Below are positions 2,935-14,185 of a stretch of DNA of 64,000 nt, piece after piece. Each line of letters begins with the position of its first letter. Positions within the stretch are counted from its first letter, which is position 1. This stretch comes from Candidatus Latescibacterota bacterium (GTDB taxonomy: Bacteria > Latescibacterota > UBA2968 > UBA8231), in the NCBI GenBank assembly GCA_965242865.1, contig CBDETK010000013.1, positions 3,520,001 through 3,584,000 on the forward strand. The letters run 5' to 3'. The notes under the pieces are model-generated. The model had not been told where the DNA came from. It saw only the letters and a list, made by a program, of their open reading frames with translations, and did not search any database. The translations under genes were made by a program, and so were the position numbers.

Positions 2935-5849
2935 GTTTCAATCCGCTCCCCTCACCAAAGCAAGGGGAGACTCGTTGACTTTGGCCCGCGCCTCCGATTA
3001 TTTCACGTTTCAATCCGCTCCCCTCACCAAAGCAAGGGGAGACATCATGGAATTACTCGTGCTGGCTGCCCTGGTCATGTTTCAATCCGCTCCCCTCACC
3101 AAAGCAAGGGGAGACAGCCGCAGCTCTTTGGCCAGCTCGCCGGTCAAGCTGTTTCAATCCGCTCCCCTCACCAAAGCAAGGGGAGACCCCGAAGACGTGC
3201 GCGACGAGGCGGTCATCCGGGTGTTTCAATCCGCTCCCCTCACCAAAGCAAGGGGAGACGGGTTAGTGCAGGGGGAAGCGTCGCTGTACAGCGGCGTTTC
3301 AATCCGCTCCCCTCACCAAAGCAAGGGGAGACGGGCGCTGGACTCCCCATCATACTCGAGGTAGCACCAGTTTCAATCCGCTCCCCTCACCAAAGCAAGG
3401 GGAGACCACGGGCATGACGACGGGCATGACGACGCCCATGAGTTTCAATCCGCTCCCCTCACCAAAGCAAGGGGAGACCCAAGTCGCTCGCCCGCACCGC
3501 CCGGCTAGAACGTAGTTTCAATCCGCTCCCCTCACCAAAGCAAGGGGAGACGCGAGCCCTTCTGCGGGATGGCTTCGATATTGCTCGTTTCAATCCGCTC
3601 CCCTCACCAAAGCAAGGGGAGACTTGGGGCTGGGGCGGACGTCAACGCGAAGGACAGAGTTTCAATCCGCTCCCCTCACCAAAGCAAGGGGAGACAAGGG
3701 ACAAGCGATACCGTGGTGCTGCATCTATTGTTTCAATCCGCTCCCCTCACCAAAGCAAGGGGAGACTCGCTCAGGTAGGCTACGATTACGTCCTTGCGCT
3801 TGTTTCAATCCGCTCCCCTCACCAAAGCAAGGGGAGACCGCGCCGTAACAGCACACCCACGTAGTTGATGGAGTTTCAATCCGCTCCCCTCACCAAAGCA
3901 AGGGGAGACGCGAGTTCGGCGGTGACCGCTGGCGATACAGTTTGTTTCAATCCGCTCCCCTCACCAAAGCAAGGGGAGACAACAAGGGGAACACGCGATT
4001 TCACGTGAGCGTAAAGTTTCAATCCGCTCCCCTCACCAAAGCAAGGGGAGACCGCCTCGCTGACGGATGGGCGTTACGTCATTTACGTTTCAATCCGCTC
4101 CCCTCACCAAAGCAAGGGGAGACCCGTCACGTCTCTCGTAGCGGCCGCGAACTGCAAGGTTTCAATCCGCTCCCCTCACCAAAGCAAGGGGAGACTGGGA
4201 ACCCTGTACCTTAGGGGGGCGGCGGCTTGGTTTCAATCCGCTCCCCTCACCAAAGCAAGGGGAGACGCCAATCTGATAGGCACAATCTACCAGGATGCCC
4301 TGTTTCAATCCGCTCCCCTCACCAAAGCAAGGGGAGACGCGTCGCGTCCGCGTAGAGGATCGCCGCGTCGGTGTTTCAATCCGCTCCCCTCACCAAAGCA
4401 AGGGGAGACTGCCGCACGCTGACCGAGGGCTTCATTGTCCTATGGGTTTCAATCCGCTCCCCTCACCAAAGCAAGGGGAGACGCGCCGCGCCCGCGAACA
4501 ACGACATGGCCCAGCGAAGTTTCAATCCGCTCCCCTCACCAAAGCAAGGGGAGACTTGCCAATTTATCCTTGCTTGGGTTGGCATGATAGGTTTCAATCC
4601 GCTCCCCTCACCAAAGCAAGGGGAGACCCGCTGTGTGTGTGTGCCGCGCTTGGCCGCGGCACAGTTTCAATCCGCTCCCCTCACCAAAGCAAGGGGAGAC
4701 CCCCGGCTTGGGGTGCGGCAGGGGGCGGCGGCAAGGTTTCAATCCGCTCCCCTCACCAAAGCAAGGGGAGACACCGCGGCTTCGAGCGGCTTGTGTTCCT
4801 CGCAATCGTTTCAATCCGCTCCCCTCACCAAAGCAAGGGGAGACATATCAGGCCTCCTTTTGGTTGGGTGGGTGGACTGTTTCAATCCGCTCCCCTCACC
4901 AAAGCAAGGGGAGACGGGCCGTCAAGCCCCGCAACAAGCACATGGGCTTTGTTTCAATCCGCTCCCCTCACCAAAGCAAGGGGAGACGGGGCGCGCGGGG
5001 CGTTCCCACTTGGCTGGATCTAGTTTCAATCCGCTCCCCTCACCAAAGCAAGGGGAGACCCGATCATGCCAACCCAAGCAAGGTTATTTGGCTATGTTTC
5101 AATCCGCTCCCCTCACCAAAGCAAGGGGAGACACCGCACCTGCAAGGCTACCCGCTCATTGTCGATGTTTCAATCCGCTCCCCTCACCAAAGCAAGGGGA
5201 GACAGCCCGAGGGGTAATTGGTCTTGCCGCATTAGCTTGTTTCAATCCGCTCCCCTCACCAAAGCAAGGGGAGACCAAGCGACCGCGCCCACGTCGGCAG
5301 CCGATACCGTGTTTCAATCCGCTCCCCTCACCAAAGCAAGGGGAGACAACCCGAATGCGGTCTTGTCGGCTTGTATTTTTCTGTTTCAATCCGCTCCCCT
5401 CACCAAAGCAAGGGGAGACCGGGCGTTGAAGCTGGGAGCACGGTATAAGAAGATGTTTCAATCCGCTCCCCTCACCAAAGCAAGGGGAGACAGAGTGGAT
5501 TGAAACTTTTTCTTTTTTCTTTGCGTGTTTCAATCCGCTCCCCTCACCAAAGCAAGGGGAGACATTTGCGGCTGGGCGGTGAGTGCGAGGTGATCGAGTT
5601 TCAATCCGCTCCCCTCACCAAAGCAAGGGGAGACAAGGTGGAACGTTGGGCCGGTCTCGCCCCCGGCCCGTTTCAATCCGCTCCCCTCACCAAAGCAAGG
5701 GGAGACGATGCGTTGGTCAAAACGACCACGAGCGCGAACACGTTTCAATCCGCTCCCCTCACCAAAGCAAGGGGAGACAGGTAGAGGATTTTCCCTACTC
5801 GCTCTCGCGCTTGTTTCAATCCGCTCCCCTCACCAAAGCAAGGGGAGAC
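2935..5849 (-). CRISPR. Type I-C CRISPR array, 41 repeats of 37 bp and 40 spacers of 34-37 bp
   Basis: Repeat on + is GTTTCAATCCGCTCCCCTCACCAAAGCAAGGGGAGAC at about 72-bp period, counted by hand. On the minus strand it ends GGATTGAAAC and forms the stem CTCCCCT/AGGGGAG. Confidence 0.99.
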
Positions 5850-6029
5850 TCCGGTTGCTGTAACCAGCGGAACAACAAAAGGTTACATAAGTGGATGCGC
5901 GAACCTCCTTTCTTCCGCATCCTACGGCCGAAGCGAGAGCATACTCCTCGCTGTAAATTATTGTTAGCCATAAAGTTGCTAACTGCGCGAAAGTAAGCGC
6001 AAAACGCCGTTGCTTCGCATTCGCGCATG
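5850..6029 (-). promoter_or_regulatory. CRISPR leader
   Basis: Non-coding, relatively AT-rich segment between the cas2 stop and the first repeat; contains GCGCGAA twice. Confidence 0.8.
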
Positions 6030-6320
6030 CTATAAGACCAGTGGCTCATTCAAGTCCACGGGTTCGTTAAGTCCGTGATGCTCCGTCTTGCCTCTGGCGT
6101 CTTCGTCCAGATAATAAAACCTGAGAGAATCCTGCTTGGGATCAATTCCCTTTAGCAGGCGACTCCTAAGCACCGCCCATTCCGTTTTTCCCACCTGACA
6201 TTCAAAAAGCGATTTCTGCACTCGGACGCCGTAATCCTTACAGGCTCTTGCCACTTGGCGTAGCCGTCGTTGGCCAGCTCGGTCGGTAGTAGAAACGTCG
6301 TACGCGATCAGGATAAACAT
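6030..6320 (-). CDS. cas2: CRISPR-associated endonuclease Cas2
   Basis: MFILIAYDVST...RRLRQVARACKDYGVRVQKSLFEC...DSLRFYYL. The start at 6320 overlaps the cas1 stop. Confidence 0.97.
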   Translation of the reverse strand: MFILIAYDVSTTDRAGQRRLRQVARACKDYGVRVQKSLFECQVGKTEWAVLRSRLLKGIDPKQDSLRFYYLDEDARGKTEHHGLNEPVDLNEPLVL

Positions 6321-7375
6321 TATTTTGGAATGAAGGGGATATAGTCCGGGACATCGCCGCGGAGCTTGCGGGCCAACAATTTGGCCTGAATACTGAATAC
6401 TTGCCCCAAGCGGACATTCTGCTTGAATAGGGCGTGTTTTACTTCTGTTTGCTTGCGCCGTTGCCAAGCTTGGATGACCTCTCGCCTGCCTTGGTCGGTA
6501 AATTCTACGGCCCCGCCCTCTCGCTCGCGAAAGTGCTTGGCCTCGATCTGCCGTCGATTGATCAGGGTCAATGCCAGCCGCTCTGCCAAACAGGGTCGAA
6601 ACTCTTCCATGAGGTCTAAGGCGCAAGCCGGCCTTCCCGCTCGCGTTACATGAAGCCAGCCGACATAAGCGTCCAACCCAGCGGTCGTTAGCGCGGCTAA
6701 GCAATCGTGGCGCACCAAGGCATAAATAAAGGAAAGCAGGCAGTTTATCCGATCCCGGGGCGGACGCCGCGTCCGGGTTAAAAACCTGAAGTCTTCTCGC
6801 TGTTGTTTGAGCATACATTGGAACACCGAGAAGTAGGTCTTGGCCCCTAGCCCCTCTAAGCCCCTGATTGGGTCGAGTGCTTCCCTAAGCCCGCAGTCTG
6901 GGGCAATAGGTGGGGCAGCGCCGAGTTGGCGGATTAGCCGGGCCAGTTCATGCGCTGCATCTGCCAAGGCCGTGCGGTCGGCATCGCCATCGGCTTCCCG
7001 TCCGGCTCGCAAGAGATTGGAGCGTGCGTTTTGCAATTTTCCAGCGACGAATTGCCGGGCAATGCGCGCGGCCTCTTGCGGGCTGTCTGCTGCGGCATAC
7101 TGCGCCCGGCGCAGCAAGTAGCGGGTATCTCCGCTTCCCAAGACTTGTGCCAGCAAGTAGCCGTTCTCCGTGTGGTAATGAACCGCCACTTGATGATCCC
7201 AGCACAAGGCCATGGCCGGGGGCGTAACCACGACCCGCCCAAACGCACAAATGCTTTCCAAATGGTGAATCGGCACGGTCAGGCGATTTTGCTTTTCAAT
7301 CTCGACTCGCAACGTCAAGTGGTCCCTGTGTACCACAGTACCCGGCGTCGTCAAATAAAGAGTGTTTTGTTTCAA
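6320..7375 (-). CDS. cas1: Type I-C Cas1 integrase (probable TTG start at 7375; alternative in-frame starts at 7393 and 7411)
   Basis: NTLYLTT, RGLEG..A..YF, RTRRPPRDRINCLLSFIY, ALDLMEEFRP..AERL. Confidence 0.97.
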   Translation of the reverse strand: MKQNTLYLTTPGTVVHRDHLTLRVEIEKQNRLTVPIHHLESICAFGRVVVTPPAMALCWDHQVAVHYHTENGYLLAQVLGSGDTRYLLRRAQYAAADSPQEAARIARQFVAGKLQNARSNLLRAGREADGDADRTALADAAHELARLIRQLGAAPPIAPDCGLREALDPIRGLEGLGAKTYFSVFQCMLKQQREDFRFLTRTRRPPRDRINCLLSFIYALVRHDCLAALTTAGLDAYVGWLHVTRAGRPACALDLMEEFRPCLAERLALTLINRRQIEAKHFREREGGAVEFTDQGRREVIQAWQRRKQTEVKHALFKQNVRLGQVFSIQAKLLARKLRGDVPDYIPFIPK

Positions 7376-7460
7376 TCCGTCTCCCTGTTTCAATCCGTTT
7401 CCCTCACCCAAGCAAGAGGAGACGCTGATTGCCGTAACCAGCGGAATGACAAAATCCTTA
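7369..7460 (-). repeat. Leader-like fragment, degenerate repeat (7387-7423) and 18-nt half repeat (7369-7386) overlapping the cas1 start
   Basis: 7387-7423 matches the consensus at 33/37. 7424-7460 shares TTGCyGTAACCAGCGGAA..ACAAAA with the real leader starting at 5850. Confidence 0.9.
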
Positions 7461-7480
7461 AATAGGAGATCCAGACGGGT

Positions 7481-8137
7481 CTAGTCGGTAGTATCGAACA
7501 CTGCCCGATAGGCCCGCGCCAGCGTGGGCGGAACACTGGTGATTTCGGGAAGGCAATGGTCGAAAAGCGAGCACTCGGAACATTGGGGTTTGTGAACAGC
7601 TTGTGGAACCGCGTCCTCCTCAATTATCCGGTGCATGGCTGCGATGGCCTGCTCGGTGAGGCGGCGCAAATCCTCGGTAAATTCCACCTCGCGGCGGCGC
7701 TTGCTCTTGGCGTGGAAGATGGCCCCGCGGGGAATGTCCCGTCCAAACATCTCTTCCAAACACAGGGCTTGCGCGCAAAGCTGGGCGTCGTCGTTGTCAA
7801 ACTTGCGGCGTTTGCCCTTTTTGAACTCGACCGGAACCAACGAACCATCGGGATGGCGTTCAACAATGTCGCACTTGCCGCTGAGCCGCAGCCGATCCGA
7901 CCAGACGGGCAGGGCGCGCAACAGCGTCACGCCCTTGACGGTTTCGTAGCCGGAAACGTCGGCCTGATCATGAAGTTGGCTCCCGACCACCGTATGCACG
8001 TTGTCGCTAAAGGTTCCCTCAACGTGAATTAAGGCCGCCCGGCGAGGGCAATAGAGATATTGATTGATAGAGGAGAGCGGGATGGTCCGCCCCCCACTAT
8101 CGAATGATTGAATCGGCAGGGTGCCCGTTTCATTCAT
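7481..8137 (-). CDS. cas4: CRISPR-associated exonuclease Cas4
   Basis: QYLYCPRR, G.CDIVE, PVEFKKG, QLCAQALCLEEM, C-terminal C..CSL...C Fe-S cysteines. Confidence 0.96.
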   Translation of the reverse strand: MNETGTLPIQSFDSGGRTIPLSSINQYLYCPRRAALIHVEGTFSDNVHTVVGSQLHDQADVSGYETVKGVTLLRALPVWSDRLRLSGKCDIVERHPDGSLVPVEFKKGKRRKFDNDDAQLCAQALCLEEMFGRDIPRGAIFHAKSKRRREVEFTEDLRRLTEQAIAAMHRIIEEDAVPQAVHKPQCSECSLFDHCLPEITSVPPTLARAYRAVFDTTD

Positions 8138-8173
8138 GTTTCAATCCGCCCCCGTACTCGGAGCCAAGGCGCC
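8138..8173 (-). repeat. Degenerate CRISPR repeat filling the whole cas7-cas4 intergenic gap
   Basis: GTTTCAATCCGCCCCCG matches the repeat at 15/17 nt. On the minus strand GGATTGAAAC abuts the cas4 ATG; the 36-bp gap is about one repeat length. Confidence 0.7.
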
Positions 8174-9130
8174 TCAGGCATGACGCTTGTGCAAGCGCAC
8201 ACCGGCCGGTAGGTCCGTGCTATCCCACCCACAGCTAACCTCGTAATCGGCAAAAGATTTGGGAAATTCCACGCTATCCTTCAACGTCACCTCAATGCCC
8301 TCGAAGAGCTTGTGAGCATGGGCGCAACCGAGGCGGGCTTCTCGCCTGTTCTGCGCGGCGTTGTTCTCGTGCTGGGTGCCGACATGCTCAAAGTCGTAGA
8401 TGCCGCGCACCGCCATTTCGCCGCGGGCGGCGGAGCGGTCATGCTCGAACATCTGGTTGAGTGCGTCAAAGAGAATGTCGAGATCGGCGTTGGTGAAACC
8501 CGTGCGCTCGGCAAAGGCCGGAGATACGTAAGCCTTGGCGGCATAGAGGGCGTAGGGCACAATGTGCTTGTTGCCCATGGTGCGTTCCTTCTCGGCGTCC
8601 TCTTCTTTGGTCACGGCCATGCGAGTAATGGAAATCTCCATCGGGGTGATAGGGTGGTACGACTGGCCGAAGGTAAATTGCACCGGGCCGCGCACTTGGC
8701 CCCAAGCAGAGCCTCTCATAATATCGTTACCGACAGCAAGCACACCACCAAAGGCACGGACATCAAAGAACTCGCGACACAGCCATTTCATGGCGGCTTC
8801 CTGTTGTTCGGATTTGGACGCACCCGAAGCCAAGCCCTCACCGCTTTTCTTAATGCCGTTGCTGATCTCATTGCTGAGCACGGCACCCTGCTTGATCAGC
8901 AGATTATAGCCGTTGGCCCCATTCTCCCCAATCCGCTCCGGGGAGAACATTTCGACGAAGTTCCGCACCTTGCGCTTAAGGCACACATCGGAGACGATGC
9001 CGCGGTTGGTATTGGGGTCAAGGCGCGGCATGTTGCCAGCATCGGGATCGCCGTTGGGATTGCCATTCGTGACATCGAAGATCAGCAACACATCGTGCCG
9101 ATTGGTGAGGATGTCGTTGAGTTTGTTCAT
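8174..9130 (-). CDS. cas7: Type I-C Cas7 (Csd2)
   Basis: NGNPNGDPDAGNMPR, SDVCLKRKVR, FFDVRAFG, GQVRGPVQF, TMGNKH.VPYALY, HDRSAARG. Confidence 0.97.
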   Translation of the reverse strand: MNKLNDILTNRHDVLLIFDVTNGNPNGDPDAGNMPRLDPNTNRGIVSDVCLKRKVRNFVEMFSPERIGENGANGYNLLIKQGAVLSNEISNGIKKSGEGLASGASKSEQQEAAMKWLCREFFDVRAFGGVLAVGNDIMRGSAWGQVRGPVQFTFGQSYHPITPMEISITRMAVTKEEDAEKERTMGNKHIVPYALYAAKAYVSPAFAERTGFTNADLDILFDALNQMFEHDRSAARGEMAVRGIYDFEHVGTQHENNAAQNRREARLGCAHAHKLFEGIEVTLKDSVEFPKSFADYEVSCGWDSTDLPAGVRLHKRHA

Positions 9131-11022: not shown

Positions 11023-11826
11023 TCAGGCCCCTTTAGGTTCGAGGATTTCAACTTCATCGGGATGGCAAGCCAAGGTGGAATTCTCGATCTTGGCGCGGAA
11101 GAAACAGGCCCTCGGTTTCGCCAATTCGCCGACAAAACGCGGGGTATTCTTTTTTGGTTTGGGTCCTAGTTCGTCCGGGCGTTTCCAGCGAAAGCCCTCG
11201 GCTCGGGCGTTGGGTGAAAAAACATCGTAGAGCATCCAACCCAAGTCCTCCTCGGGCTGCCGCCAACTGGTACCAAGTTCGGCTGTTCGCTCTTCCATGG
11301 CAGTTTGGGGATCATCCACCCACTCGAAGTCCGCCGCAAATTCACGCATACCCAAGGCTGGCCGATGGAAGCACTTGCCCTGTTGGGCGCGGCGCTTGAA
11401 TTCAGCGAAATACTTCATCGGCGGGTCAGTCTTGCGATCCGCCAACGGCGTGGTACGCAACTCGGCACTGATGATGTACTCCACTTCCTGCAAAGCCAAC
11501 ATGTTGCGCTGGGTACCGTCGGGTGCGCCACCGCCTGCCTCAATAGGTTTGACCTTCTCCGGCTGAGCCATCCATTGACTGACGTTACGTAGGCTGATGA
11601 CCGACTGCACTTCATTGCGCCGAATGGAGGCCCAGCGGCCTCGCCGCACCACCCGGATGGCGGCGACGCGATAGCAGACTTGGGGCTCCCAAAAGACAGC
11701 TTCCAAGATGCCTCGGGCCGCAGAAGGCGTCATAATTGGATAACTGACGCGCTCCACTTTCATTTCAGGGCGGGTGAAACAGGCCCAGTCGCCCCAGACT
11801 CTCAGATGTACGTAGTTACCTTTCAT
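11023..11826 (-). CDS. cas5: Type I-C Cas5 (Cas5d, crRNA-processing)
   Basis: WGDWACFTRPEMKVERVSYPIMTPSAARGILEA, LGMREF. Confidence 0.96.
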   Translation of the reverse strand: MKGNYVHLRVWGDWACFTRPEMKVERVSYPIMTPSAARGILEAVFWEPQVCYRVAAIRVVRRGRWASIRRNEVQSVISLRNVSQWMAQPEKVKPIEAGGGAPDGTQRNMLALQEVEYIISAELRTTPLADRKTDPPMKYFAEFKRRAQQGKCFHRPALGMREFAADFEWVDDPQTAMEERTAELGTSWRQPEEDLGWMLYDVFSPNARAEGFRWKRPDELGPKPKKNTPRFVGELAKPRACFFRAKIENSTLACHPDEVEILEPKGA

Positions 11827-14075
11827 AGCAAAAAATCCTCGGTTGGGCGTGAACCAATAACCACGCCGAGATGTTCGTGATAAGCGGCCTCATCCAAAAC
11901 TCTGAGTTCCATGCCGGGGAGCAGTGGGCGGAGTAGCCCCATTGAATCCAACGCATGGAAATCGCGCAAATGCAGATTCACCATAAAGCGTTGGAGATCG
12001 CGCAAATCCTTGCGCGTGAAACGCGGACCACCCGTTTGAGCGCGTTCTCTGATGGCGTCCACTTCTTCCAAGGCTTGCTTCATTGGCGCGATGACAGCCT
12101 GCGTGTCATCGGTGATTACCTTGGCCTTGCGGGCCACTTCGCGGAAACGCAACGCCTCTCGATCTTCTTGAATGGGGCATTCCCGTTTGCGATCGTGATC
12201 CGTGGACACGCATTCAAAAAGCTCCGCAAAATAACGCCCGAACAACGCCGGCTCGCAAGACCAATCATCCGTAGCCAAATCATCCAACAACCGTGCCGCA
12301 ATGTCCGTGGCGACGCGATAGACGCCGCCGGGCAACTTGGCTTCTATTGGCCGGAACACCACCACGCGCCCTTTGTTCGGCAGGCGTCCTTCTCGATTGC
12401 ACCGTCCTGCCGCCTGCACAATCGAATCTAGCGGTCCCAAGGCTCGATAAACCAACGGAAAGTCAATATCCACCCCGGCCTCTACGACCTGCGTAGAAAC
12501 CAACCAGCAAAATCGACCTTCCCTTAAACGCCGACGAACCTTTTTCAACACTTGAGTTCGATGTTCTGCACACATAGCAGAAGAAAGATGGAATACACTT
12601 CTCAGCCTTGCTTCCAACCTATCTTTTGATAAGCCTTGCTCTTTCAAAGAATCTCTCAACATTTCCCACCATTCGGCGGCCTGCTTGCGCGTATTTACTA
12701 CCCCCAAGGCTTGGGGTTCGCTTGTCCATTCTGTGGCTAATCCAGACCAATCGCTCTCTGTCTTTCGCACCGAGTACGCTACCCGGCCCAACTTCTTAAA
12801 CAAGTCATCGGGTTGCGATACGAGTTCCTTTACTTCGCGCTCATCAAAACCATTCGACAACGATGTGCTACGCTTAAAGGCCGGTTGGGTCGCCGTAGAA
12901 AAAACAAAACTCACTCGGTAGTGTTTTTTGAGGTCGCGCAACACATGTAGGAGCGGATTGAGCAGATGTGCAGGTAGCGTTTGCACCTCATCCAGCAACA
13001 CCACAGAATTTGCGATGTTGTGTAGTTTCCGGCACTTAGAAGTGCGATTGGCAAAGAGGGACTCGATGAACTGCACCGAAGTGGTGACGATGATCGGCGC
13101 GTCCCAGTTCTCTGCCGCCAATTCCTCTGGGGACCGGCCTTGTTCGTCATTATCATCTTTTGGTGCGACGGCCGAATGGTGCTCAATCACGATGCCTTCG
13201 TCGTTGGGGTCGAGCACTTTGCGGTATTCGGCGGCGTTTTGCTCGATGATTGACAGATACGGTATCACCACGATCACCCGCTCCATGTCATGCCGTCGCG
13301 CATGTTCCAAGGCAAAGGCCATGCCCGAAAGCGTCTTGCCCCCGCCCGTCGGCACGGTTAAAAAAAAGAAGCCTGTCGGCTCCGCGGCCTTTGCCAAGCA
13401 GTCTTCAAACACGCGGTTACGCAACGCATTGAGTTCGCCCGAAGAATCAAACTCGCCCCGGTGCGCTTGCAGTCGCTCTAGTAACAACGCAGCGTCCAGC
13501 TTCAGCGAGCGTCGTTCTTGGCCACGGCTAAATTGTTCCGTATCCAGAAAATCCGCATCCACCAAACAGGAAAACAACATTCGCACGTAGAATTCTGCGA
13601 CAGCCTTGTCCTCTGCACACTTGGCAAATTCCGGTTCGGCTAACTCGTTGGGAATTTTCCCCAATTCATCTTCAAACCGTTTTACCAGAGGTACGAGCCG
13701 GTTCACAGCATCGTATTTCTCGCCGCCAACCAATGCCTGCAAATCACTCACGTCATGCAGCCCCGCATGGTGCCCAGCAATGGCAAAAGCTGGGCCGACC
13801 CACTCTCGTTGAAACGCTAAAGCGGCACCAAACACCGCATGATGCGTTTCAGCAGATCCTGGGCGTTTGCCTGCCAAGTATTCTTGGAATGGCTCCCGAT
13901 ATTTTCCTAAGTCGTGGAGTAGCCCAGCCCATTTCGCGGCGGGGCCGAGTGGTCCACCAAACTCCCGAGCCTTTTCCGCCACATTTCGCAAATGCTCGGA
14001 TAACGGTTGCCAGTGCGATTTATTCGGATCGCGTTCCCCAGCCTCCGTTTCAGCGGTGTGAGCGTAATAATTCAT
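11823..14075 (-). CDS. cas3: Cas3 HD nuclease-helicase
   Basis: HDLGK, LVDADFLDT, PTGGGKT, DEVQ, STQVVEAGVDIDF, QAAGRCNREG. Confidence 0.98.
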   Translation of the reverse strand: MNYYAHTAETEAGERDPNKSHWQPLSEHLRNVAEKAREFGGPLGPAAKWAGLLHDLGKYREPFQEYLAGKRPGSAETHHAVFGAALAFQREWVGPAFAIAGHHAGLHDVSDLQALVGGEKYDAVNRLVPLVKRFEDELGKIPNELAEPEFAKCAEDKAVAEFYVRMLFSCLVDADFLDTEQFSRGQERRSLKLDAALLLERLQAHRGEFDSSGELNALRNRVFEDCLAKAAEPTGFFFLTVPTGGGKTLSGMAFALEHARRHDMERVIVVIPYLSIIEQNAAEYRKVLDPNDEGIVIEHHSAVAPKDDNDEQGRSPEELAAENWDAPIIVTTSVQFIESLFANRTSKCRKLHNIANSVVLLDEVQTLPAHLLNPLLHVLRDLKKHYRVSFVFSTATQPAFKRSTSLSNGFDEREVKELVSQPDDLFKKLGRVAYSVRKTESDWSGLATEWTSEPQALGVVNTRKQAAEWWEMLRDSLKEQGLSKDRLEARLRSVFHLSSAMCAEHRTQVLKKVRRRLREGRFCWLVSTQVVEAGVDIDFPLVYRALGPLDSIVQAAGRCNREGRLPNKGRVVVFRPIEAKLPGGVYRVATDIAARLLDDLATDDWSCEPALFGRYFAELFECVSTDHDRKRECPIQEDREALRFREVARKAKVITDDTQAVIAPMKQALEEVDAIRERAQTGGPRFTRKDLRDLQRFMVNLHLRDFHALDSMGLLRPLLPGMELRVLDEAAYHEHLGVVIGSRPTEDFLL

Positions 14076-14185
14076 TCAATTCTCTCCTGAAAATCTAACA
14101 TCTCCGCCCTAAAGTCGTGCTCCTCCTGCTTGGGGCTGGAGTGGTTTACTCAGCCAATGAACACTTCGTCCAGACACTTCCGCGC

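Follow-up and report, generated by a model that had tools for sequence, protein, structure and literature searches.

The element between cas4 and cas1

The stretch of DNA considered here, called the window, comprises 64,000 nucleotides (nts) of a Candidatus Latescibacterota bacterium (GenBank assembly GCA_965242865.1, contig CBDETK010000013.1, positions 3,520,001 to 3,584,000). On its minus strand is a complete type I-C operon of CRISPR and cas genes, and between the cas4 and cas1 genes of this operon is sequence that resembles both the leader and the repeats of the adjacent CRISPR array. The region 7369-7454 is best explained as a CRISPR-repeat-derived intercistronic element carried before cas1 by this lineage of adaptation modules. 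Its anatomy and its distribution in relatives can be read directly from the aligned sequences. From the cas4 stop codon to the TTG proposed as the cas1 start codon is 105 nts, in which four parts are distinguished, with coordinates read on the minus strand:

7480-7455, minus strand: rest of the cas4-cas1 spacer (26 nts)
7454-7424, minus strand: leader-like segment, matching the true leader end (5880-5850) at 25/31 positions, with a 13-nt exact core
7423-7387, minus strand: repeat copy psiR-B, matching the array repeat at 33/37 positions (local score 54)
7386-7369, minus strand: tandem duplicate of the psiR-B 3′ end (18 nts, 17/18 matching), in frame with cas1

The repeat of the array has a 10-bp stem, a 4-nt loop and an 11-nt 3′ handle, CGGATTGAAAC, and a fold of -17.6 kcal/mol (z -3.9). 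The handle of psiR-B (7397-7387) is intact. Of its four differences from the array repeat, two fall in the 3′ arm and one each in the 5′ arm and the loop; those in the 3′ arm adjoin the cut site, the arm ending in AAA and not GAG. At about -10 to -13 kcal/mol the psiR-B hairpin is weak next to that of the array repeat, and an earlier caution that substitutions weaken the stem was well placed. The 18-nt duplicate consists of a Shine Dalgarno-like AGGGAG (7386-7381) and a second intact handle (7379-7369) which encloses the TTG. Outside the array the exact 11-mer handle occurs only at 7369, 7387 and 8138; 1.29 chance matches are expected when up to one mismatch is allowed.

By its similarity psiR-B ranks as a standalone repeat-like element outside an array; the null expectation for the repeat-copy scan is 0.03 hits per 4.5 kb at a score of 26 or more. 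An array as such is not what precedes cas1, where the order is copy, 18-nt partial duplicate and cas1 without a spacer-sized segment, though a leader-like segment is present. The local alignment score of that segment, 37, was reached by none of 1000 shuffles (shuffle maximum 25). The first-pass annotation of this DNA had described the repeat copy and the in-frame duplicate of the repeat 3′ half where they are now placed. It had also described 37 bp of leader homology, of which the likeness itself holds and the length does not, being 31 nts. In contigs from strains about 98% identical, the repeat copy and the 18-nt duplicate are kept, and 23 extra nts between 7454 and 7455 extend the leader likeness (by eye).

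The leader-like segment, with its 13-nt core, directly abuts the repeat copy, and such an arrangement could in principle let Cas1-Cas2 insert spacers before cas1, as a cryptic integration site or nascent array. This is extremely improbable. No spacer-sized insert is present, the sole duplicate being 18 nts, and the leader-like part is missing in same-genus relatives. Contigs of four runs from four studies, compared over 6900-8400, show neither spacer insertion (none at 7369-7423) nor loss of the duplicate, with the limit that contigs drop rare variants and cannot show RNA ends. The earlier suggestion of spacer integration in front of cas1 thus finds no support.

The type I-C operon

The operon lies on a 5.6-Mb chromosomal contig (C13). 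Its genes were named by NCBIfam profiles, and its type follows from the presence of cas3, cas5c, cas8c, cas7c, cas4, cas1 and cas2 in one operon with an adjacent array and no cas6:

14075-11823, minus strand: cas3, matching models of the cas3 core and the HD domain
11826-11023, minus strand: cas5c, NCBIfam Cas5c at 116.5 bits (cut-off 85)
11020-9152, minus strand: cas8c, NCBIfam Cas8c at 331 bits (cut-off 219)
9130-8174, minus strand: cas7, NCBIfam Cas7/Csd2 at 293.6 bits (cut-off 182)
8137-7481, minus strand: cas4, TIGR00372 at 130.1 bits
6320..7375, minus strand: cas1 (type I-C), TIGR03640 at 418.6 bits (cut-off 385), 351 amino acids from the TTG at 7375-7373
6320-6030, minus strand: cas2, TIGR01573 at 56.5 bits, overlapping the cas1 stop codon as TAATG
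5850..6029, minus strand: true leader (180 nts); the leader-like segment before cas1 resembles its last 31 nts (5880-5850)
2935..5849, minus strand: CRISPR array, 41 copies of a 37-nt repeat, the first (R1) at 5849-5813

A promoter and terminator scan of 5700-8400 found no minus-strand promoter-like site in either the cas7-cas4 or the cas4-cas1 junction; its sole feature is a terminator-like hairpin after cas2.

Related loci and module exchange

Of the 30 loci from a species-level genome scan, 16 have a Cas1 identity of 84-94%, and a Cas1 match was present in 22 of 101 related genomes. A metagenome scan gave two further close loci and one outgroup (L066, 58% identity). The comparisons below are of 21 distinct clade loci: that of the window, five re-fetched with full operons, L009-L022 and L064. 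Left out were L023 (truncated, and used for its cas4-cas1 junction only), the degraded fragments L037 and L060, L065 (the same as L064 where examined) and L040-L050 (duplicates of other loci).

All clade loci share one repeat family with covarying stems, though the records are labelled as metagenome-assembled genomes of several phyla. Their adaptation genes are 70-94% identical to those of the window. Among the effector genes at least three groups can be told apart, one with cas7 at 71-92% identity, one with cas7 at about 43%, and one with a divergent cas5-cas8-cas7-cas3 order and cas3 at 28-29%. Sister adaptation modules stand beside different effector modules in L015/L017, in L010/L014, and in the window compared with G019 and G007, which points to exchange of cas4-cas1-cas2 and the array as a unit. 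The Cas1 protein tree is star-like and the DNA tree resolves few clades. (A small, cargo-like gene with an aspartyl-protease domain, PF13975 and PF13650, occurs at varying places in several of these cas loci: at 5354-5788 on the minus strand of L081, in the cas7-cas4 gap of L013 and L018, and upstream of cas3 in L083.)

The probable start of cas1

The cas1 open reading frame spans 7411-6320 (363 amino acids) and has in-frame TTGs at 7411, 7393 and 7375. The last of these is most likely the start, because three lines of comparison agree on it: the start of the Cas1c profile, the in-handle TTGs of two same-genus relatives, and the ATG that follows the copy in other relatives. Positions 3-339 of TIGR03640 align to residues 15-361 of the open reading frame, and this puts profile position 1 at TTG 7375. 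A start there gives MKQNTLYLTT, the N-terminus that had been proposed before. In G019 a 9-nt duplicated handle follows the repeat copy and its TTG is the sole ATG, GTG or TTG between an in-frame TAA and QNTLY, while in G007 the in-frame TTG sits in the repeat copy itself and gives MQQNTLY. The unpaired AGGGAG which the duplicate places 5 nts upstream of TTG 7375 also bears out the first-pass annotation, and it resembles the GGAG-type Shine Dalgarno sequences that serve other genes of the operon, cas3 and cas7 among them, at a spacing of 6-7 nts.

Elsewhere in the clade the start codon is ATG (17 of 21 loci, and L023) or GTG (L009, L021 and L064), 6-12 nts before a conserved QNT. In most relatives the start is an ATG 12 nts ahead of QNT, so that Cas1 begins MAIVQNTLY or a variant of this. 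In L012, L013, L015, L016, L017, L023, L083 and L084 (one base shorter in L084) this ATG comes immediately after the copy. The 13 nts that hold this ATG in relatives are lost from the window, G019 and G007, and these three form a clade with 97/97 support on cas1 plus cas2 DNA.

Repeat copies before cas4, cas1 and cas2

Each locus was scanned with its own repeat. Of the 21 clade loci, 14 have a recognisable copy before cas1, and L023 has one as well; the position is conserved in relatives, and copies are also found before cas2 and cas4. The element is not private to this genome.

The window has a second copy that had escaped the earlier annotation:

8173-8138, minus strand: psiR-A, before cas4, a degenerate repeat that makes up the whole 36-nt cas7-cas4 spacer and is more degenerate than psiR-B

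Its handle (8148-8138) is intact and abuts the ATG of cas4, and its orthologues are better preserved in L015, L016, L019 and L085. Copies before cas4 occur in 6 of the 12 loci that have the effector type of the window (the window, L015, L016, L019, L085 and, weakly, L020) and in 0 of the 9 others. In four of them the handle directly precedes the ATG; it is 2 nts off in L085, and in L020, where it is decayed, about 18 nts off. Before cas2 there is a copy in 7 of 21 loci (L010, L011, L014, L016, L019, L084 and, weakly, L085), and cas1 and cas2 overlap as TAATG in 10 of 21. A TTG within the handle is in frame with cas2 (MKLIAYD) in L010, L014 and L011, the same arrangement as for cas1 of the window, and in L010 another in-frame TTG lies five codons further upstream.

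Across the 121,844 nts of non-array sequence of the 21 loci, the gene strand has 20 occurrences of the handle at up to one mismatch and the other strand has one. Of the gene-strand occurrences, 16 are at the starts of cas4, cas1 or cas2, and the remaining 4 are inside cas8, at one conserved site in L010, L016 and L021 and at one elsewhere in the cas8 of the window. These counts reflect few independent events, because the loci are phylogenetically related.

Beyond the clade, the outgroup L066 (58% identity) has no repeat copy. A scan of 124,521 nts from 31 I-C loci of greater distance, all with clean arrays, found junction copies in 3, L053, L062 and L055, all from the host family of the window. 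The first two have a two-copy mini-array between the cas7 stop codon and cas4, as do L054 and L056, in all four at positions about 740-850. At the cas1/cas2 junction, noted in L055 and L087, the former carries a near-perfect repeat.

Two candidates were set aside. The handle-like pair spaced 72 nts apart upstream of cas3 in L083 is an unrelated direct repeat, and the half-repeat in the 5′ coding region of cas4 (window, L015 and L016) scores 15-23, under the threshold of 26. In the 530-nt cas3-cas5 gap of L083 there is also a lone repeat-like unit, at about 3485-3520; its handle is exact, and it runs opposite to the cas genes.

Proposed origin of the element

The reading preferred here, with a rough probability of 0.55, is that the element came about by recombination and was inherited as a relic, that a leader-repeat junction overwrote part of it, and that it now constitutes the translation start region of cas1. 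Its present role, as 5′ untranslated region, Shine Dalgarno sequence and start codon of cas1, is regarded as established by inference. The order and mechanism of the recombination events are what we infer from the following.

An older repeat copy probably stood immediately ahead of an ATG start, the arrangement still seen in most relatives. The genus of the window would then have lost 13 nts that included the ATG, for which reason translation would have had to begin at a TTG in the 3′ handle of the repeat. Short tandem duplications of the handle may have followed (0, 9 or 18 nts in the three genomes), and the 18-nt duplicate of the window would have placed an unpaired AGGGAG 5 nts before the TTG. 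Finally, in the lineage of the window itself, the 5′ part of the element seems to have been overwritten through recombination with a leader-repeat junction, which would explain both the leader-like 31 nts and the array-like 5′ half of the copy.

The leader-like segment is missing from this place in G019, G007 and G040, and relatives of the same genus or family have a different 20-nt sequence there. The first 16 nts after the cas4 stop codon (7480-7465) match the G019 spacer at 12/16 positions (by eye), which would put one recombination breakpoint near 7465. Within the copy, the 5′ half is array-like and the 3′ half retains changes typical of old copies. The segment itself matches the leader of the window at 25/31 positions and the leaders of other clade loci at up to 27/31, and the copies of L019 and L085 bear the unusual loop of their own arrays. 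These features suggest recombination or gene conversion between an old copy and the junction of leader and first repeat. The path may have been unequal crossing-over with a deletion after it, or else a repeat-flanked adaptation cassette may have entered a resident array. The collapsed ancestral array which the first-pass annotation offered as an alternative survives in part: the unit does appear to derive from a leader-repeat junction, but no spacer is present and relatives show that an older copy was already there.

On this conservative reading, the locus documents recombination between the first repeat of the array and copies within the operon, the combination of one adaptation module with at least three effector modules, and gene starts rebuilt from repeat sequence, all of which bear on the shuffling of CRISPR-Cas modules.

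Decay, folding and possible control by Cas5c

Mean identity at the four-fold degenerate sites of cas1 is 0.52 (210 pairs), and identity at the 11 handle positions before cas1 is 0.45 across the 21 loci. In the 14 recognisable copies the handle identity is 0.69, against 0.59 at four-fold sites in the same pairs, a subset selected by the feature itself. Because handle identity has no clear excess over that of four-fold sites, purifying selection on the cas1 copies is not claimed; they seem to decay at about the rate of synonymous sites, and this fits a relic. The hairpins of the cas1 copies are mostly weak (z -2.1 to +1.7, compared to -3.9 for the true repeat). By eye, nearly all of these copies have G replaced by A at the final position of the stem, beside the Cas5c cut site. 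For Cas5c of B. halodurans, the part of the source available reports that changes at the stem base inhibit cutting (PMC8524198).

However, a number of observations weigh against a mere relic. The repeat copies are confined to the gene strand and to gene junctions, where they end at or within start codons, and they recur at three junctions, all preceding adaptation genes. Junction copies, at cas7/cas4 and cas1/cas2, are found too in a second I-C lineage, a canonical one from the host family of the window, with Cas1 about 43% identical. Handle matches before cas1 are bimodal, with at least 9 of 11 kept in 11 of 21 loci and 5 or fewer in 8 (the 4 matches of L084 are an artefact of a 1-nt shift, and about 9/11 match when realigned by eye), which does not look like smooth neutral decay. 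At least four handle duplications are independent: in the window (18 nts), G019 (9 nts), L085 (13 nts) and, before cas2, L016. The cas4 copies retain the canonical context of the cut site, and those of L019 and L085 have very stable hairpins, at -23 and -25.5 kcal/mol (z about -5). Finally, hairpin-plus-handle units co-binned on phage-like contigs, described below, are in several cases 2 nts before an ATG or just before a Shine Dalgarno sequence and ATG.

These observations lend some plausibility to the possibility, tentative as it is, that the repeat copies are mimics of CRISPR RNA (crRNA) precursors through which Cas5c controls the adaptation genes. Cutting would part the mRNA of the adaptation genes from that of the effector genes, or remove the Shine Dalgarno sequence; alternatively, Cas5c and Cas7 bound at the handle would block the ribosome. 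By either route, expression of the adaptation genes would depend on the pool of free effector subunits. Ribosomal-protein operons are autoregulated by mimicry of an rRNA binding site, and the analogy, of a protein that binds a mimic of its RNA target at an mRNA start, is one of mechanism only. How the adaptation genes of type I-C systems stay low, or controlled, relative to the effector genes is poorly understood. If true, repeat copies at the starts of cas1, cas4 and cas2 would link crRNA processing to the translation of adaptation genes.

In favour of such control are the three exact handles outside the array, each at a gene start, the 20 to 1 strand bias of the handle at up to one mismatch with 16 of the 20 at cas4, cas1 or cas2 starts, and the cut-site context of the cas4 copies with the strong hairpins of L019 and L085. 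What Cas5c recognises is the cut site with the handle downstream of it, and not the loop, as far as the available part of PMC8524198 goes, and single repeat units of I-C operons are, from what is accessible of bioRxiv 10.1101/2024.12.27.630466, processed to RNAs with an 11-nt 5′ handle. The phage-like contigs contribute covarying hairpin-plus-handle units 0-2 nts before an ATG. Against it, the stems of the cas1 copies are weak and have in common the stem-base change of the kind reported to inhibit B. halodurans Cas5c; decay of these copies proceeds at about the rate of synonymous sites, and 7 of 21 loci have none that can be recognised; the relatedness of the loci reduces the counts to few independent events; and Cas5c of the clade has Tyr for the His of the Lys-His pair in solved Cas5c/d proteins. 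(The Lys-Tyr is seen in the window, at 11023-11826, and in L081, L085 and L083, relatives from two effector groups.) The copies before cas4 and cas2 and the phage-like units strengthen the regulatory idea, and the decay pattern of the cas1 copies weakens it. The more elaborate proposal, in which the mimics before cas4, cas1 and cas2, with their counterparts before late genes of the co-binned phage-like element, are operators cut or occupied at the ribosome-binding site by Cas5c, with or without Cas7, so that acquisition is tuned post-transcriptionally and phage exploit or evade the same recognition, is unlikely.

Comparison with known elements

Standalone repeat-like sequences in cas loci have already been catalogued. 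Like them, as described in the part of the catalogue available, the copies are degenerate versions of the cognate repeat between cas genes and are conserved in related loci. The main text of that catalogue highlights types I-E, I-D, I-F1 (near cas3), I-B (near cas6) and V-A and does not mention I-C or cas4. The catalogued elements lie in long spacers, often as mini-arrays with promoter targets, whereas in the window the spacers are short and filled by the copies, which reach up to or include the start codon of an adaptation gene and for which no target was found.

Also known are the I-C crlRNA units, for which the accessible text (bioRxiv 10.1101/2024.12.27.630466) describes a single unit in an I-C cas operon and an 11-nt 5′ handle when Cascade is present. 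Those units, by the same text, sit between cargo genes and cas5c and repress the cargo promoter, while in the window the place of a guide would be taken by the beginning of the cas4 or cas1 coding sequence. The CreR/CreA mini-CRISPRs are, in the portions available (bioRxiv 10.1101/2023.03.10.532045; PMC9458426), likewise degenerate repeats in cas loci, with degeneration tolerated. They need a spacer-like segment with a partial target, flanked by a protospacer adjacent motif (PAM) and usually in an effector promoter, and this was not found here.

Elements of these kinds are known in type I systems, including I-C (from the accessible parts of bioRxiv 10.1101/2023.03.10.532045 and 10.1101/2024.12.27.630466), and a two-copy mini-array stands at cas7/cas4 in the second I-C lineage from this host family. 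Even so, it is very unlikely that a copy and the sequence after it give rise to a crRNA-like RNA which, by partial complementarity, guides Cascade to a site flanked by a PAM, for example in a cas promoter, and so represses transcription. For the 35 nts after 8138, 7387 and 7369, the 64-kb window has no seed match of at least 9/10 flanked by a PAM (TTC, TTT, CTC, TCC or CTT). Genome-wide, matches are at chance level only, with 0, 1 and 3 TTC-flanked 9/10 hits, none of them in cas loci, among 108-188 hits with any PAM. No spacer separates the copy from its duplicate, neither junction has a minus-strand promoter-like site, and the pseudo-spacer of the mini-array in the second lineage has no PAM-flanked target within 12 kb.

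Racr RNA anti-CRISPRs are solitary mimics of cognate repeats, and the part of the source available includes a validated I-C example (PMC10651486). As described there, Racrs are decoys encoded by viruses and plasmids, whereas the cas1 element is in a host cas operon, on the chromosomal contig C13, and is part of a translation start. In the literature, a repeat copy that supplies the Shine Dalgarno sequence and start codon of cas1, or one before each adaptation gene, was not found, though supplements may list such elements.

Repeat mimics on phage-like contigs

Three G000 contigs, C2 (11.9 kb), C4 (28.4 kb) and C11 (23.4 kb), with loci L097, L098 and L099, carry at least 13 solitary repeat units. 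Each is a hairpin of varying sequence and a nearly invariant handle (TGGATTGAAAC or ...AAAT), and relative to the host repeat the changes are compensatory in 5 of 7 stem pairs. One unit shows the 9-nt handle duplicate of G019. A gene beside the units on C2, C4 and C11 matches a phage major head protein; eight other proteins tested from the phage-like contigs gave no PHROG hit. The units look like Racr-type mimics on a phage-like element.

C4 also has a mini-array (G000:C4:12320-12560, L088 about 1920-2160) with a promoter-like TATATT and a terminator-like hairpin. It consists of one degenerate unit and two host-type repeats, whose first handle base is T, with spacers of 35 and 34 nts. The second spacer agrees with a site in the 5′ part of cas4 (window 8108, minus strand) at positions 1-5 and 7-11, where the PAM is TCA, and with the orthologous site of L085 at 9/10, where it is TCC. 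Since there are six similar seed hits genome-wide, the notion of a phage guide against the adaptation genes is only a lead.

Other gene starts and a second array

GGAG...ATTGAA is present at the starts of both cas7 and cas3, where it could be a repeat remnant. At cas7 it was treated as an ordinary Shine Dalgarno sequence, because the spacer before cas7 varies freely among relatives. Just before cas3 the match is weaker in the window (14075-14087), and L085 has a 9-nt exact match to the handle region 8-20 nts upstream of the cas3 ATG; the cas3 start may be a fourth junction with a repeat remnant.

The first 34 nts of cas4 (8137-8104, minus strand) are nearly palindromic, matching their own reverse complement at 22/35 positions, and could form a hairpin that covers the cas4 start codon. 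A second, unrelated array of about 57 repeats ending in ...GGGATTGAAAC is at G000:C13:4796533-4800839.

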